Shown here: one piece after another, positions 1-28,745 of the stretch | How the letters are laid out: each line of letters starts with the position of its first letter | How positions within the stretch are numbered: the first letter of the stretch is position 1 | Assembly (NCBI GenBank): GCA_963699255.1 | Contig: OY969425.1 | Location: forward strand, 1,738,856 to 1,770,855 | Direction: 5' to 3' | Source of the DNA: an uncultured bacterium | GTDB taxonomy: Bacteria > Margulisbacteria > WOR-1 > CAVSGV01 | DNA: 32,000 bases | Notes under the pieces: model-generated | Database searches by the model: none | Told to the model about the DNA's origin: nothing | What the model saw: only the letters and a program-made list of their open reading frames with translations | Position numbers and translations under genes: made by a program

Positions 1-510
1 GTCAGGCTTTTCGCCCCGGTGCTTTCTTTTACCGCGGAAGATATCTGGAAACACATAAAGAAATCCGAAATCCTAAATCCTAAATCCGAAATAAATCCAA
101 AATACCAAATTCCAAACAATTCAATTTTTGAGGAAAAGATGCCTGAGGTAGACAAAAAACTGCTCGACGAAAAGCTTGAATCCAAATGGGATAAGCTTCT
201 CGGGATAAGAAGCGAGGTCTACAAGGTCTTTGAGAACGCGAGGGCTGAAAAATCGATAAGCCATCCGCTTGAGGCCAGGGTGGAGGCATTAATGGAAGGG
301 GAAGACTATAAGCTGCTGAAAGATATGGAGCCGCAGCTCCCATCCCTGTTCATAGTGTCGGAATTCCTTGTAAGCAAGGGAAGCAGGAACATAACCGTAA
401 AGAAAGCCGAAGGAAAAAAGTGCGAGAGATGCTGGATGCATCTAAAGTCAGTCGGCGCAAACAGCAAGCATCCAACGTTATGTGAGAGATGCGCCGGAGT
501 GGTCGGGTGA
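1..510 (+). CDS. ileS: Isoleucyl-tRNA synthetase, C-terminal fragment (5' end outside window)
   Basis: Frame 1 is open from base 1 (VRLFAPVLSFTAEDIW...), so the listed M at 19 is internal. Ends with paired Cys knuckles KCERCW...LCERC typical of bacterial IleRS C-termini. Stop at 508-510. Confidence 0.85.
   Translation, partial: VRLFAPVLSFTAEDIWKHIKKSEILNPKSEINPKYQIPNNSIFEEKMPEVDKKLLDEKLESKWDKLLGIRSEVYKVFENARAEKSISHPLEARVEALMEGEDYKLLKDMEPQLPSLFIVSEFLVSKGSRNITVKKAEGKKCERCWMHLKSVGANSKHPTLCERCAGVVG
61..125 (+). repeat. Degenerate heptamer array inside the ileS reading frame (AAATCC GAAATCC TAAATCC TAAATCC GAAATAA ATCC...)
   Basis: Read directly: 7-nt period for the first units, decaying into A/C-rich words. 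Translated in frame as SEILNPKSEINPKYQIPNN. Confidence 0.8.
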
Positions 511-3500: not shown

Positions 3501-6500
3501 GAACCTTCAGTATCAGGGGAGCCGTTGTTCCCCAATTGCGGGTTGTGGACGAGGCCCGATGTATATGCGTCGATGAAATTCGTTTTATAATTCGCCCATG
3601 TGCCGCCTATCTTGTCCTTGTAATCGCTGCCCGCTGTCGGATAGTCCGCCGAATAACACAGGAAATACAACGATCCAACCGTGTCATTCACCGTGATCCC
3701 GTCGCTGTTGCCGACATTGCTCCACATATTGGCTCCGTTCTTGGCCTTTACATGGAAGTAATAGGTTGTTCCGTTGGTCAGGGAAAGTCCGGTCTTGGTT
3801 ACTTGAGTATCTGTTTGGACAGAAGTCCAGTCAACTATCTTTCCATTCTCCGGGTCAGTTGGATCTGTTGATATGGAATACTGATATTCTGTTATGCCTG
3901 AATCCGGATCGGAAGAAGACCATGAGGCATGGAGCTGGGTTGAATAGTTCGTATATATTCCATCATCGTAGACAATAGGATCTGTAGGTGGAGTGGTGTC
4001 AACGGCAACCGTGATCCCGTCGCTGCTGCCAATATTGCTCACCAGGCCGGCCCCGTCTTTGGCTTTTACATGGAAGTAATAGGTTGTGCCATTGGTCAGG
4101 GAAAGTCCGGTCCTGGTTACTTGGGTATCTGTTTGGACAGGGGTCCAGGGTACGATGTTCCCGGTATCCGGATCGGTCGGGTCGGTGGATATGGAATACT
4201 GATATTCTGTAACACCTGATTCCGGATCTGAAGAAGACCATGAAGCGTGGAGCTGGGATAATGAGCCTGTAGATACTCCATCATCGATAACAACAGGATC
4301 TGTAGGAGGTGTGGTGTCAACGGTTATCCCGTCGCTGCTGCCGACATTGCTCCACTGGCCGGCTCCGTCTAACGCCTTTATATGGAAATAGTAGGTTTGG
4401 CCATTGGTTAAATTAAGGTTGCTTGCGGTTATGTCGGTATCAGTGCCGGCGGGAGTCCAGGGCAAAATGTTCCCGGTATCCGGATCGGTAGGATCGGTGG
4501 ATATGGAATACTGATATTCTGTAACGCCTGATTCCGGGTCTGAAGAAGAGTATGTGACATGGAGCTGGGATAAAGATGTAGCATATTTCCCATCATCATT
4601 GACAATAGGATCTGTAGGAGGTGTATCGTCAACCATTATTCCATCGCTGTTGGCAACATTGCTCCACAGGCCGGCTCCGTTCTTGGCCTTTACATGGAAA
4701 TAGTAGGTTTGGCCATTGGTTAAATTAAGGTTGCTTGCGGTTATTTCGGTATTCGTATCGGCGGTAGTCCAGGGTACGATGTTCCCGATAGTTGGATCGG
4801 TAGGATCGGTCGATATGGAATACTGATATTCTATTACGCCTGATTCCTTATCGATCGAAGGAGACCATGTGGCATGGAGCTGGGATAAAGAAAGGGTGTA
4901 TACCCCATCATCGGTGACGGCCGGATCTGAAGGGGGAGTTGTATCTGCCATCATAACCACATCTTTGTAAACATTGACAAAGTTCCCTGACAGGAGCAGA
5001 GCTGCAAAACTCGCCAGAGATTGATTGTAATAGTATTTTCCTACTCCGGGCCAGTTGCCCCAGTAACCGCCGTTCGCCGCGGTCGCATTCTGGGAAAAAT
5101 TGTTCTCAAATTCTGTATTGAAGGCGGACTGATAAACTGGCGATCCGCTTACCATAGCGCCGGTTGCCCACATACCTTCGGTCAATTCATTGTGGAATGC
5201 GCCGTCGCCATCTCCGTATGGAGTGCCGTTCATGTCGTAAAGAATTGCCTTTGACGCTGCCGTTGTTTCATCGCCATAGGAGCATGTAAGGAAAATCCTC
5301 CCGTTCTGCAAATACTCATCGGCTCTTTTGTCATTGAACCATATCTTATCAAGTGTCATCATCCATGGACCCCTTATCCCGTCGTACCACATATGATAGC
5401 CATTATCTGATGCACCTGCTGGGCCGGTATGGCCGTATTGGCTTATCCCTCCGGCTCTGGTGCACATATCCGGGGTTAAGCCGTTGGAATATCCGTCGGT
5501 CGATTGAAGGGTCGTGTAGCATTGATCGACAACGGGTTTCCAGTCGTGGAAGTTCGCCTGGTAGAATTGGAAGGTCTTTAAGGCAGCCGTGAAGAAATAT
5601 GAAGGATTGGCGGCATCCTTGCCGGTCCAACCATCCCCGGGCATCAGATACTGCCCGCCATCAACGTCGTTCGCGTATATGTTGTCGATAAGGTTCTGCG
5701 CTTTGCTGCCGTAATCATTGCCTGTGTCTGACCAGCAGCCTTGTTTGATAAGTGTATCCGCAAATATCAGGGCAAGGGTGATGAAGATATCGCCGTCAGT
5801 GGTGGATGTTGCGTCGAGAACATTATCGCCGGACATGTCAACCGTGGATGCAAAGAGGCCTTTTCCGTCCTTATCGTGCATTTTTGCGTATGCGGCGGTC
5901 AGGATCTTATCGAAATAGGTCTGGTCGCTATTATAAATGGCAAGAAGAAGTCCGTAGCCTTGCGCTTCGGAGGTTGAGCCTTCAGTATCAGGGGACCCAT
6001 TGTCTCCCAATTGCGGGTTGTGGACCAGGCCCGATGCATATGCGTCAATGAAATTCGTTTTATAATTCGCCCATGTGCCGCCTATCTTGTCCTTGTAATC
6101 GCTGCCTGCTGTCGGATAGTTCGCCGAATAACACAGGTAATACAATGGTGTTGTTATGTTATTCGCCGTGATCCCGTCGCTGTGGCCGACATTGCTCCAT
6201 AGATCGGATCCGTTCTTGGCCTTTACATGGAAGTAATAGGTAGTTCCATTGGTCAGTGTGAGCCCGGTTGCGGTCACCTGGGCATCAGTCCCTGTAGAAG
6301 TCCAGGGCACGATGTTCCCGGTATCCGGATCGGTCGGATCGGTCGATATGGAATACTGATATTCTGCAATGCCCGAATCCGGATCGGAAGAAGACCATGA
6401 GGCATGGAGCTGGGTTGCAGAGCTGGTAGTTGCCCCATCATCGGTAACGACAGGATCTGTAGGGGGTGTCAGATCAAAATTCGTAGTGATCCCATCGCTG

Positions 6501-14709: not shown

Positions 14710-15459
14710 ATGCTGCTTGCCGTTGATATCGGTAATACGAACATTGTTCTCGGACTTTTCAAAAATGATAAGCTCATCAGCAAGCATCGGATACTAACAG
14801 ATAGTTCTGCCCGCGTCAAGGCGGCGGGGCCCCTGGATGCGGCCATCATTTCCAGCGTTGTACCGCATCTTACCGGGGACATATCGAGGCAGATCGAAAA
14901 GCGGTACAGAGTGAAACCCGTGATCGTGAGCTGGCGCAACATCAGGGGTCTAAAGATCGCACTGAAAAACAAGGGTCAGGTGGGCATTGACAGGCTGGTC
15001 AATGCGGTCGCCGTCAAACATTTATATGGATCGCCGGCGGTAATAATCGATTTCGGCACCGCGACCACTTTTTGCGCGCTCGATAGGACCGGGCGGTACC
15101 TTGGGGGAGCGATAACATCCGGGCTTGCGATATCAAGGGATATCCTGTACGAGAGGACCGCAAAACTTCCTTTTATTAGCATCATCAAGCCGGAGAGAGC
15201 GATAGGCAGGAACACTCTGGAGGCGATGAGGTCCGGACTTTTTTACGGCTATGTTGACCTGGTGGACGGGATGATAAAAAGGTTCAAGGCGCAGCTTGGG
15301 GGCAAGGCAAAAGTGATCGCCACCGGCGGGCTTTCGGGGATAATAGCTTCCGGAACGGACAAGATAGATGTTGTCGATACGGACTTGACGTTAAAAGGAT
15401 TAAATATAATATATAAGGAGATGCGAGACGCGAGATATGAGATGCGAAGTGTGAGATGA
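14710..15459 (+). CDS. coaX: Type III pantothenate kinase
   Basis: [18 protein letters not shown]-terminus and [10 protein letters not shown] motif. The ATG at 14710 is preferred over the listed 14686 because it gives the canonical N-terminus. Confidence 0.85.
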
Positions 15460-15480
15460 GAGGTGTGAGATGAGCGAAGA
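15418..15480 (+). repeat. Nine consecutive heptamers GAGATGC GAGACGC GAGATAT GAGATGC GAAGTGT GAGATGA GAGGTGT GAGATGA GCGAAGA
   Basis: Read directly. Covers the last 13 codons of coaX ([13 protein letters not shown]), its TGA (15457-15459), the GAGG SD and the lysS ATG (15470). Confidence 0.85.
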
Positions 15481-17011
15481 ATTATCGGATCTGTTAAAGG
15501 TCAGAAGGGCCAAGCTCGAAGAGCTGAGAGCGAAAAATATTAATCCTTATCCGTACCGCTTTGAAAGGGATTCGACCTCGGGCGCCGTCCTTGAAAAGTA
15601 TAAGGACCTTAAAGCCGAAGAGGTCAGTCCAGAGGTCGTTGTGCTTGCCGGAAGGCTTATGACCAGACGGGGACACGGAAAAGCCTCCTTTGCCAACATT
15701 CAGGATGGGGCAGGGAAGATCCAGATATACGCCAAGCTTGATGTCATGGGCCAGCAAAAATACGAGCTTTTTGAAAAACTGGATATCGGCGACTTCATAG
15801 GGGTAAGGGGGCCGGTCTTCAAGACCAGGACGGGGGAGACCACGGTAAGGGTCAAAGACTTCGAGCTTCTTTCAAAATCCCTTCATCCTCTTCCTGAAAA
15901 ATGGCACGGCTTGACGGACAAGGAGCTGCGTTACAGGGAAAGATATGTTGACCTGATAGTCAATCACGACGTCAAGGAGGTTTTCGTCAAGAGAAGCAGG
16001 ATAATCACCGAGGCCAGGAGCTTCCTTATATCGAAAGGCTACCTGGAAGTTGAGACCCCTGTCCTTCACATCCAGCCCGGCGGGGCGGCCGCCAGGCCTT
16101 TTGAGACATACCATAACGCGCTTGATATGGATCTGTACCTCAGGATAGCCCTTGAGCTTCATCTGAAACGCTTGATAGTCGGAGGTTTCGAGAAGGTGTT
16201 TGAGATCGGCAGGGTCTTCAGGAACGAGGGAATATCCTTCAAGCACAATCCGGAATACACCATGCTGGAGCTTTATGAGGCTTACTCGGATTACAATGAC
16301 ATAATGAAGCTGACGGAAGAAATGGTGTCTTCCATAGCCAATAAAGTTCTCGGGACAACAAAGATCAAATATAAAGACATTGATATTGATTTTAAGACGC
16401 CGTGGGCCAGGATCACCCTGCATGACGCGCTGAAGAAATACGCCAATATCGACATAAACACGGACGAAAAAGGCTTGAGGGCCATCGCGAAGCAAAAAGA
16501 ACTGGAGGGTTACATGGAACTGCCGGTGGGCAAGATCATCAACCTTCTTTATGATACTTTTGTTGAAGCCAAGATCATCCAGCCCACGTTCATAATCGAT
16601 TATCCGGTGGAAACCTCTCCTCTGGCAAAGAGGAAAAGGGATAATCCTCTCCTTGTGGAGAGGTTCGAGGTCATTGTCGCCGGAATGGAGCTGGCGAACG
16701 CTTTCTCCGAACTGAACGATCCAGTGGACCAGAGGGAAAGGTTCCAGGAGCAGGTCGAGGCGCGCAAGGCGGGGGACGATGAAGCGGAATCGATGGATGA
16801 GGATTTCCTGAGGGCCCTTGAGTACGGGATGCCCCCGACGGGAGGCCTGGGAATAGGGATAGACAGGCTGGTCATGCTTTTAACGGGACAACCGTCGATA
16901 CGGGATGTCATCCTGTTCCCGCACATGAGGCCGATCGAGATAAAAGAAACGGATGCGAAACCGGAGGAGATAAAGGTACTGGATGATAATAACAGAAAAA
17001 AAAGAATATAA
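15470..17011 (+). CDS. lysS: Lysyl-tRNA synthetase, class II
   Basis: 513 aa with class II motifs ([25 protein letters not shown]; [14 protein letters not shown]). Confidence 0.92.
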
Positions 17012-20047: not shown

Positions 20048-20196
20048 ATGCCCCTGCGGGGAATTACCAATCACCAAATTCCAGATCCCAAGCAAATCCC
20101 AAATTCAAAATCCCAATTCCCAATTTGACATTGGGATTTTGTCATTCATTTGACATTTGTCATTGGTCATTTGTCATTCTCCGCTTCCTGGCGGAG
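20048..20196 (-). repeat. 149-nt tRNA-Ile/tRNA-Ala spacer filled with heptamer arrays and an 11-bp hairpin
   Basis: Plus strand reads ...TTTGTCA TTGGTCA TTTGTCA (20156-20176) and CCCAAAT/CCCAATT-type words (20086-20125). Perfect stem AAAATCCCAAT (20107-20117) / ATTGGGATTTT (20130-20140). Confidence 0.8.
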
Positions 20197-24955: not shown

Positions 24956-26239
24956 TCAAAACCTTTTATATAGCCCCGAAGCTACCATCCCGGTTTTGCT
25001 GTTAAGCACGGTGTTCATTATTCCCGCGCGCTCCACGGTGAATTCTCCGAAGCGGTCATTTATGTCATCTATGGCCCTCATGACCTTTTTTCTGTTCTCC
25101 TTTGATTCAAATATGCTTATCTGGTCCAGGTTGTGGCGCAGGCCCGAGAGGGTGACGCCCACGAAGCGCGCGCCGTCCATCTTGCCCAGTTCGCGGTCAA
25201 GTATTGTCTCGGCTTCCTTGAAAATGTCGTAGCCGTCATCGATGTATTCCGGCAGCTTTTTCTGCCTGCCCCAGAAGTTGAATTCCCCCCCGACACTCCC
25301 GACACTGCGGTCGGGACAGGTTCGGTCGGGGCAAGCGATCCCGATCGTCAGATGCACGATATTGCCCTGATAATTATCCCTTCTCAGCCTCCTGCCCACC
25401 TGTTCGCTTAATCGCAGGAGATAGCCCTTGATCTCATTCATGTCCCTTGTGAATTTCGGCAAAGTGTATGAGTGTCCCATCGACTTGGCATCTGACTCGT
25501 GCCAGTGGGGAAGGACAGGAGAGTCGTCTTTCCCTTGTCCCATATGCCAAAGGTGTTCCCCGCATACGACCCCGAAGCGCATGACCAGCCTGTCGCGGGG
25601 ATACCGGTTCAGCTGGCCTATTGTGTGGACACCCAATTCGGCAAGATGGGACTCAAGTTTTCTGCCAATCCCGCAGAGCTTGGCTACGGGAACGTCTTTT
25701 ATCTTCTCCGGAATATCCTCCGGACGCAGGATTATCAATGCATCCGGTTTTTTAAGCTCGCCGGCAAGTTTAGCCATCAGCTTATTCGGGCCTATCCCTA
25801 TGTTGCAGGTAAGATTAAATTTCTCCCTTATCCATTTTTTAATATTCTGGGCTATTACGATCTCCCCGCATCTTGCATCTCGCGTCTCCCATCTCTCTTT
25901 TGTGTCCGTCACATCGATCCATGCTTCATCTATCGAGAATATCTCCACGAGGTCGGAATAAGTTGTCAGGTGCTTCATTATGGCTTTTGAGGTGGAGATG
26001 TATTTCGGCATGTCGCCTACTACTATTATCAGTTCCGGGCAGATCTTTTTGGCTTCCCAGGTGGACATGGCGTTCTTTATTCCGCGGGCTTTGGCTTCGT
26101 AGCTTGCGGCCGCGACGACGGAGGTCTTCTTTATCCCGCCGCCCACCGCTATCGGCTTTCCCCGAAGGGCGGGATTCGCCGCCTGCTCGACGCTGGCGAA
26201 GAAGGCGTTCATATCTATATGCAAGATAGTTCGGTTCAT
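24956..26239 (-). CDS. dinB: DNA polymerase IV (Y-family)
   Basis: MNRTILHIDMNAFFASVEQAANPALRGKPIAVGG, SIDEAWIDVT and little-finger region. 427 aa. Confidence 0.92.
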   Translation of the reverse strand: MNRTILHIDMNAFFASVEQAANPALRGKPIAVGGGIKKTSVVAAASYEAKARGIKNAMSTWEAKKICPELIIVVGDMPKYISTSKAIMKHLTTYSDLVEIFSIDEAWIDVTDTKERWETRDARCGEIVIAQNIKKWIREKFNLTCNIGIGPNKLMAKLAGELKKPDALIILRPEDIPEKIKDVPVAKLCGIGRKLESHLAELGVHTIGQLNRYPRDRLVMRFGVVCGEHLWHMGQGKDDSPVLPHWHESDAKSMGHSYTLPKFTRDMNEIKGYLLRLSEQVGRRLRRDNYQGNIVHLTIGIACPDRTCPDRSVGSVGGEFNFWGRQKKLPEYIDDGYDIFKEAETILDRELGKMDGARFVGVTLSGLRHNLDQISIFESKENRKKVMRAIDDINDRFGEFTVERAGIMNTVLNSKTGMVASGLYKRF

Positions 26240-27234: not shown

Positions 27235-27291
27235 TGTCTTTTCCCCCTTGTTTTGCCTCTGATCTCTGGTCTCAGATCTCTTATCTCGTCT
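27235..27291 (-). repeat. Heptamer array in the lexA 5' leader (minus strand: gacGAGA taaGAGA tctGAGA ccaGAGA tcaGAGG caaaaca aggggga aaagaca ATG)
   Basis: Read directly. Eight in-phase heptamers (56 nt, 27290 to 27235) end exactly at the lexA ATG. Same GAGA-type unit as 15418-15480. Confidence 0.75.
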
Positions 27292-27293
27292 TC

Positions 27294-27311
27294 GGTATAC
27301 AAGTGTATACC
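27294..27311. promoter_or_regulatory. Candidate LexA operator GGTATACAAGTGTATACC (7-bp arms, 4-nt spacer)
   Basis: Perfect palindrome 60-77 nt upstream of the lexA ATG. A TTGACA -35 hexamer (minus strand, 27324-27329) lies 12 nt upstream, so the palindrome covers the -10 region. The geometry matches GAAC-N4-GTTC / GTAC-N4-GTAC type SOS boxes. Confidence 0.55.
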
Positions 27312-28654: not shown

Positions 28655-28745
28655 GAGGCGAAGGAAGGGTGATAGCAGAAGTCAGAAGGCAGAAGTAGGG
28701 GGCGCATTTCTAACTTCAAACTTCTAATTTCTTACTTTTTATTCT
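28655..28745. repeat. Mirrored heptamer arrays: purine arm (..GTGATAG CAGAAGT CAGAAGG CAGAAGT AGGGGGC) then pyrimidine arm (GCATTTC TAACTTC AAACTTC TAATTTC TTACTTT TTATTCT)
   Basis: Read directly in the divergent intergenic region between the 403-aa gene and the ORF6N gene. The arms are imperfectly complementary (CAGAAGT vs ACTTC). Confidence 0.75.

Follow-up and report, generated by a model that had tools for sequence, protein, structure and literature searches.

What is a tandem array of seven-nucleotide units doing on the junction of two essential housekeeping genes, where it is read as the tail of one protein and contains the stop codon of the first gene and the start codon of the second? 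The question arises in a stretch of 32,000 nt (positions 1,738,856 to 1,770,855 of contig OY969425.1; hereafter, the window) from an uncultured bacterium whose genome is a single contig of 1.77 Mb with 47.5% G+C. The relatives of its lysyl-tRNA synthetase (LysRS) belong to Margulisiibacteriota / Saganbacteria / WOR-1, Margulisiibacteriota being the sister phylum of Cyanobacteria. The array joins the end of coaX, which codes for a type III pantothenate kinase, to the start of lysS. We favor, with a probability of about 0.75, the view that it is a local, expanded copy from a family of degenerate heptanucleotide tandem repeats specific to this lineage, within the known class of simple sequence repeats (SSRs) with 7-nt units, and not a special device. 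What is new is the series of orthologous junctions with three, five, six, and eight units, together with the interpretation of this junction as an ATGA overlap that has expanded; the repeat class itself is already known.

The array and the orthologous coaX-lysS junctions

The array occupies positions 15418–15473 of the plus strand and consists of eight head-to-tail 7-nt units without indels. In the window, Tandem Repeats Finder (TRF) reports a period of 7 at 15418–15472 (7.9 copies, 68% matches, 0% indels) and a nested period of 14 at 15438–15474 with 91% matches. At lags 7 and 14, the array matches itself at fractions of 0.67 and 0.81; in 20,000 shuffles of its 56 nt, no lag between 2 and 14 reaches such values. 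The units belong to the GAGAYGN word family, comprising GAGATGN, GAGACGN, GAAGTGN, and GAGGTGN, and this is the longest run of the family in the genome. The heptamer array announced in a preliminary description of this DNA is real, but it is shorter than was said. It has eight units, not nine, and GAGAY is found in six of them, GAAGTGT and GAGGTGT being the exceptions to what had been called a GAGAYNN array. The putative ninth unit, GCGAAGA (15474–15480), is the conserved coding start of lysS: it falls in invariant alignment columns and is present in every relative, with an array or with none. Protein comparison also finds the N-terminus of LysRS to be common to the relatives.

The coordinates bear out the overlap with CoaX tail, stop, ribosome-binding site, and start codon that had been described. 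The coaX open reading frame (ORF; 14710–15459, plus strand; Pfam PF03309, E 3e-58) reads 39 nt of the array, and its final 13 codons and stop (15418–15459, with TGA at 15457–15459) are array-encoded. A GAGG follows at 15460–15463, and the ATG of lysS (15470–17011, plus strand; a class II enzyme with PF00152 and PF01336) lies 6 nt downstream of it, at 15470–15472. Because the 3′ end of the 16S rRNA (...CACCTCCTT) carries CCUCC, this GAGG fits the anti-Shine-Dalgarno sequence and is the likely Shine-Dalgarno site of lysS; Shine-Dalgarno and promoter assignments are in this work consensus matches only. The array had also been said to begin where the conserved CoaX sequence ends. The tail of the protein is indeed encoded by the array, but conservation stops at ...LKGLNIIY; the residues beyond vary among relatives, and KEM is already in the variable tail.

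The units differ in their distribution among relatives. Units 1 and 2 (GAGATGC GAGACGC, 15418–15431) form with unit 6 the three-unit core of relatives having EMRDAR-type tails, as judged from the alignment and the junction sequences. Units 3 to 5 (15432–15452) are a 21-nt in-frame expansion found in this genome only. They account exactly for its three extra units relative to the five-unit form, correspond to a single gap of 21 columns in three relatives (L119, L120, and L113), and add seven residues to the CoaX tail. Unit 6 (GAGATGA, 15453–15459) contains the coaX stop and an ATG overlapping it (15456–15458), and its counterpart in the three-unit relatives (L114, L121, and L118) contains the ATGA stop/start overlap. 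Unit 7 (GAGGTGT, 15460–15466) holds the GAGG, and a GAGGTGN word is retained at its position in L119, L120, L116, and G003. Unit 8 (GAGATGA, 15467–15473) contains the lysS ATG. Units 7 and 8 are a tandem copy of units 5 and 6, identical at 13 of 14 positions. Translation of the third frame gives a five-codon mini-ORF (MRGVR and a stop, 15456–15473), whose ATG overlaps the coaX stop and whose TGA overlaps the lysS ATG. The same arrangement is found in L119, L120, L116, and L113, and it is an automatic consequence of the 14-nt spacing. All these features are on the plus strand.

In about 50 Margulisiibacteriota loci, coaX and lysS have remained neighbors. The most frequent single state of the junction among them is a 4-nt ATGA overlap of stop and start, often located within a GAGATGA unit. 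Many closer homologs of CoaX came to light in a protein search, and junction DNA was compared for eight homologs and one metagenome contig. L114 and L121 (85% and 84% identity in CoaX) have three GAGAYGN-type units with the ATGA overlap in the third, as does L118 (78%). In L119 (77%), GAGGTGN and GARATGA come after these three units; the first ATGA ends coaX, and lysS begins at the second, 14 nt downstream. L120 (74%) has the same arrangement as L119, and L113 (73%) has five units with this spacing, GAGACGA being in the position of the Shine-Dalgarno unit. The 3′ units of L116 (80%), GAGGTGC and GAAATGA, are as in L119 and are preceded by a nonheptameric insert in the CoaX tail. The most divergent of these, L117 (61%), has six units and a GTGA overlap. 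A different, Arg-rich tail with a 9-nt period replaces the heptamers in L115, G003, and G002 (90%, 74%, and 68%), of which G003 still ends in GAGGTGC GAGATGA. The gaps of the MAFFT alignment of the junction measure 14, 21, and 35 nt, all multiples of 7.

The CoaX tails of nearly all family-level homologs, taken after ...NIIY, are of two kinds, EMRDAR-like and Arg-rich RGARR-like. The former include KEMGDAR, KEMRGAR, REMRDAR, KEMRDTR, and REMGDGR among homologs with 74–85% identity, and a 14-residue form in L117. Tail length ranges from 2–3 to 18 residues, and some relatives stop after 2–5 (MS, KESK, RGLE, EGMNK). In the phylogenetic tree of CoaX made with the tails removed, heptamer and other tail types are interspersed, and the well-supported branches force at least two changes. 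The two-unit (14-nt) spacer with both ATGA motifs occurs in five lineages (this genome, L119, L120, L116, and L113) scattered on this tree, and in the tree of concatenated CoaX and LysRS, L113 falls outside a well-supported clade formed by this genome, G005, G003, and G002. The nearest neighbors of this genome on the tail-less tree have three units or the other tail type, and thus the eight-unit state is derived. On these sequence comparisons, the coaX-lysS junction is an old and hypervariable repeat site. For near-identical strains, the metagenome contigs yielded no match to a pattern of the two flanks separated by 31 to 60 nt; a shorter pattern recovered one family-level relative, L113.

The closest LysRS relative, G005 (L002 / L022, contig C99), has about 3.5 kb between coaX and lysS and is uninformative; a large insertion has thus entered the same junction as well. 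This insert encodes a secreted repeat protein, with a signal-peptide-like N-terminus, Kelch-like LLPNGK repeats, and a secretion-type C-terminal tail. In three distant relatives from other families of the class (L010, L027, and L051), the coaX-lysS spacer holds heptamer arrays of other words, among them GTTATAA-type words in about 4.9 copies and AAATCCC words in about 3.6 copies.

Heptamer repeats in the genome and in other lineages

Period 7 is the commonest tandem period of the genome, with 247 TRF rows against 17–39 in simulated genomes (nine, of Markov-1, -3, and -5 type), i.e., about eight times the expectation. Period 14 is also in excess (71 rows against 3–11). Together with the junctions of three, five, six, and eight whole units and the gaps in multiples of 7, this supports the slippage-type origin advanced in the preliminary description. 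Merging gives 268 arrays. Noncoding DNA makes up 10.07% of the genome according to a home-made caller based on ORFs and codon usage (1,604 genes), which applies a Shine-Dalgarno bonus in the choice of starts, and it contains 66% of the bases of the arrays. Among the 268, 41 overlap the 3′ ends of genes, 11 the 5′ ends, and five span both. The arrays draw on a handful of vocabularies, of which the commonest units are AACAATT, ACATCTC/AGAGATG, AAATGAC, and AATCTCT.

Runs of at least three GAGAYGN units number 39–40 in the genome and are absent from four Markov genomes. In a census of 40 such runs, 25 have four units and one, the array at coaX-lysS, has eight. Strict runs show the same peak at four units (1,342 of one unit, 18 of two, eight of three, 19 of four, and one of six), and the modal length is 28 nt. 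The copies vary in setting. Some pair with an inverted arm to make a hairpin that has a T run, others stand alone as solo arms, and several are in-frame parts of coding sequences. When a single mismatch is tolerated, the four-unit pattern is found 33 times in this genome and in four of five genomes of the same family (17 times in G001, seven in G003, three in G002, and once in G004). Abundant in this family-level clade only, it is sporadic elsewhere, with 11 occurrences in G145, two in G011, and one in G125, and there is no match in the remaining 138 genomes of the phylum; a reversed control pattern gives two hits in total. At other loci of Margulisiibacteriota, and in some other phyla too, heptamer arrays built of different words are common. 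We found no paper describing such heptamer repeats in Margulisiibacteriota.

The placement of the arrays shows no link to gene starts. Of the 102 arrays lying wholly within codirectional spacers, nine come as close as 10 nt to the start and 15 as close to the stop, where 10 would be expected in each case under random placement; relative positions are flat, and placement is uniform. The preliminary description had named in advance a lack of enrichment near starts as the outcome that would speak against its proposal, and this is the outcome of the scan. Strand bias was not seen either, the A-rich strand of arrays in codirectional spacers being sense in 52 cases and antisense in 41. Solo GAGAYGN arrays have no preferred orientation between genes (eight sense, nine antisense). 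Inside genes, eight are sense and one is antisense, a bias that we take to reflect which peptides are tolerated.

Several classes of heptanucleotide repeats have been described in other lineages. According to Mrazek et al. (2007), as summarized in PMC4679880 and PMC4692102, heptanucleotide repeats are the most abundant class of long SSRs in most genomes and are attributed to polymerase slippage. The summaries describe the features found here: head-to-tail 7-nt units, an excess over expectation, concentration in intergenic DNA, unit numbers differing between relatives, and slippage as the proposed cause. The array has tandem 7-nt copies beyond chance and changes by whole units between related genomes, as expected of this class. 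In contrast with it, the words here are degenerate, with a free seventh position, a family-specific vocabulary, and a run-length peak at four, and this copy lies on a gene junction, where it encodes a protein tail, a stop, a Shine-Dalgarno site, and a start. Short tandemly repeated repetitive (STRR) heptamers have units such as CCCCAGT, TTGGTCA, and CAACAGT. In the filamentous cyanobacteria Calothrix and Nostoc, they are, as cited in PMC4692102, dispersed tandem heptamers, mostly intergenic and with no known function. The arrays of this genome share the intergenic dispersal, but neither the canonical units nor the cyanobacterial host; the genome has several vocabularies of its own, and homology is not implied.

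A likeness in run length is seen with the GGGAATC / GGGGAYT repeats of Xanthomonas and Nostoc, which mostly have four units and vary extensively in length and sequence between related genomes at the same intergenic sites (PMC4692102). These also have heterogeneous units with conserved and free positions and some inverted pairs (PMC4692102), but they are G-rich and quadruplex-capable, whereas GAGAYGN has no G runs. The TAACTGA repeats of marine Beggiatoaceae, some Cyanobacteria, and Bacteroidetes (PMC4679880) are comparable in that the unit contains stop codons and lies a few nucleotides from starts, sometimes within operons. Yet the Beggiatoaceae copies are mostly directly upstream of starts, whereas the arrays of this genome are placed uniformly within spacers and on either strand. 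A tandem array of TAACTGA, the exact Beggiatoaceae heptamer (PMC4679880), is present at 6450–6482 of L027, a Saganbacteria metagenome-assembled genome.

Origin of the array and alternative explanations

We propose that the changes in unit number arose by replication slippage or by unequal tandem duplication. After a two-unit duplication of a junction inside GAGATGA, the first copy would serve as the stop of coaX and the following one as the start of lysS; stop and start have parted through such a duplication in at least five lineages. Because GAGATGA spells both TGA and ATG, and units of the GAGG type resemble a Shine-Dalgarno site, any whole-unit change would regenerate the signals. The purine-rich tail that the array adds to CoaX would then be a tolerated by-product, and selection would act on the last two units only (GAGG, 6 nt, ATG), as the initiation region of lysS. 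The conserved GAGGTGN unit is probably the sole selected part, as the Shine-Dalgarno site of that gene. The natural series of three, five, six, and eight units would mean that a tandem repeat can separate two overlapping essential genes and leave both intact. The genes can be pried apart unharmed because the repeat unit encodes a stop, a start, and a Shine-Dalgarno-like triplet. Margulisiibacteriota are thereby added to the lineages rich in heptamer repeats, and the locus offers a simple model for translational coupling across a repeat but reveals no new kind of element.

Some observations weigh against so simple an account. The three-unit core persists at the junction down to 61% CoaX identity, in L117, a longer persistence than would be expected of a neutral microsatellite and a hint of selection or of continuing homogenization. 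A simple slippage equilibrium predicts no peak in run length, whereas the family peaks at exactly four units. Slippage as an ongoing process is deduced from differences between lineages only, and the census rests on a simple gene caller in which the Shine-Dalgarno bonus enters the choice of starts.

The array, or at least its 3′ half, might instead be a selected device for the initiation or coupling of lysS translation: a purine-rich, unstructured leader with GAGG, in which the 14-nt spacer makes a five-codon relay ORF, so that coupling by termination and reinitiation survives the loss of the direct ATGA overlap. We consider this unlikely. In its favor, the two-unit spacer, both ATGA motifs, and the bridging mini-ORF are found together in the five scattered lineages, GAGGTGN is retained in four of these five and in G003, and a GAGAYGN array is still at the junction at the lowest CoaX identity. 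A role in translation has also been proposed for the TAACTGA heptamers just upstream of starts in Beggiatoaceae (PMC4679880). The junction is unstructured, as such a leader would be: its RNA folds at −12.9 kcal/mol, no better than shuffled sequences (−13.2 ± 2.1 kcal/mol, z = +0.14). However, the mini-ORF is the arithmetic result of 14-nt spacing and an AGA codon before TGA, for which selection is unneeded, and common descent may account for its presence in the five lineages. There are close relatives without any array (L115, at 90% CoaX identity, G002, G004, and G006), units 1 to 5 lie within coaX and are freely variable, and arrays genome-wide have neither strand bias nor enrichment beside starts. 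An RNA-level function of the whole array, which the preliminary description had entertained, is not supported by this placement or by the fold test, and no Rfam family covers it. At the gathering threshold, Rfam matches in the window are to rRNA and tRNA only, with no T-box, L-box, or other cis-regulatory RNA of lysS; the best subthreshold matches are to snoRNA models (E 0.16–0.47). No intrinsic terminator was found between coaX and lysS. A weak σ70-like match just before the array (15385–15412; TTGACG, 16 nt, and a TATAAT-like hexamer, 9 of 12 positions) is a putative promoter lying on conserved codons. A stronger form of the argument holds that GAGATGA is a self-renewing stop/start module, so that slippage by whole units at an ATGA overlap could not destroy the junction, and that its 14-nt product has been retained in several lineages for a relay ORF of five codons, by which ribosomes ending coaX would reach the start of lysS, and also that the four-unit quantum of 28 nt and the words shared with PF05635 cassettes point to a dedicated process that makes or trims arrays, other than plain polymerase slippage. 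Taken as a whole, we consider this quite unlikely.

The PF05635 cassettes also suggest that the array could have been inserted and not grown in place, as a solo arm or footprint of a mobile hairpin element made of inverted heptamer arms around small genes of the four-helix-bundle type found in 23S rRNA intervening sequences (IVSs), or of empty hairpins. The genome has ten PF05635 (S23p) genes, at least six of them bracketed by inverted heptamer arms, and the one at genome positions 716382–716693 has GAGATGN arms. A T run comes after several GAGAYGN copies that form hairpins, the focal array has exact 19–22-mers in common with other copies, and the modal length of the family equals that of the 28-bp terminal stem of the Coxiella burnetii IVS, which has strain-variable tandem heptamers before its ORF (PMC4990558). 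Nevertheless, the focal array has a single orientation, no inverted partner arm, no stable fold, and no ORF cassette, there is no PF05635 gene in the window, and the array lies outside rRNA; the 23S gene of the window matches the full model without insert. Shared three-unit words number 28 against 35 ± 9 after permutation of units among arrays, and a small vocabulary thus explains the shared 19–22-mers. No reverse transcriptase (PF00078) is encoded in the genome, and the unit series, with its gaps in multiples of 7 anchored on the native stop, Shine-Dalgarno site, and start, fits growth in place. Insertion of this kind is highly improbable, a shade more so than selection for the protein, in which an Arg-rich, charged C-terminal tail of CoaX would be maintained and the DNA periodicity would be secondary. 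Nearly all family-level homologs do have a short, charged, Arg-rich tail, EMRDAR-like or RGARR-like, but its length varies from 2–3 to 18 residues, its sequence is unconserved, codon selection cannot yield a 7-nt period, and the same words occur in noncoding DNA on both strands; we regard this explanation as very improbable. A contingency locus, at which coaX or lysS would be turned on and off as units are gained or lost, is scarcely credible. The array does resemble the phase-variable SSRs of host-adapted pathogens such as Haemophilus (PMC12721329) in being a slippage-mutable tandem repeat over coding and leader sequence, its 7-nt units cross two reading frames, and their number differs among relatives. 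Yet coaX and lysS both have essential housekeeping functions, high slippage rates are not to be expected of units as degenerate as these (68% matches), and neither gene can be turned off by a change in unit number, since each of the three frames has stops in the array. Simulated gain or loss of one to three units upstream of the coaX stop alters only the last residues of CoaX (238–256 aa), leaves the kinase domain intact, and never reaches lysS.

Two further candidates were rejected. Dispersal of a master copy as a fixed block had been suggested by the shared 19–22-mers, but permutation of the units gives as many shared three-unit words. Production of the repeats by a reverse transcriptase was discarded with the absence of PF00078.

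The lexA leader and other heptamer arrays

The unit of the junction had been reported to recur in the leader of lexA. An array is present there, with five GAGAYNN units on the minus strand (27253–27287; TRF, 27257–27287), the gene being assigned to LexA by its Pfam domains. However, its units begin with GAGAT or GAGAC and have A, C, or T in position 6, never G; they thus form a sister word set sharing the GAGAY core and are not GAGAYGN. The array is located between a palindrome at 27295–27311 and the Shine-Dalgarno site and ATG (27234) of lexA. This palindrome, GGTATAC-AAGT-GTATAC, has two copies genome-wide (the other at C1:954496), both intergenic: one upstream of lexA and one about 50 nt upstream of a gene for an N6/N4 DNA methyltransferase (PF01555). 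From sequence and neighborhood, it may be a LexA operator, or the GTATAC sites may be tied to a restriction-modification system. Downstream of lexA, a gene for a Y-family (DinB/ImpB-type) DNA polymerase (ORF 24956–26239, minus strand) contains three GAGAYGN units in frame and in sense orientation (25875–25895, 21 nt).

Arrays of other words are found elsewhere in the window. An AAATCCN array at 60–116 (plus strand, within ORF 1–510) lies in frame inside the C-terminal anticodon-binding domain of the isoleucyl-tRNA synthetase. There, 95 residues align to 76 positions of the Pfam profile, which suggests a repeat-encoded insert of about 19 residues. Nearly the whole spacer between two minus-strand tRNA genes (20048–20196) is taken up by heptamer arrays, first of CAAATCC and then of TCATTTG words, and it includes an internal hairpin. 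A terminator-like hairpin built of heptamers is present at 28676–28737, where GAAGTNN units come first, then the inverted counterpart of these (TTCTAAC-type), and lastly a T run. The longest heptamer arms of the genome, with 23.7 copies of GAAGGAA type and 13.3 near-perfect TTCTAAC copies, are at C1:1541454–1542109, where they bracket a PF05635 gene (1541672–1541971).

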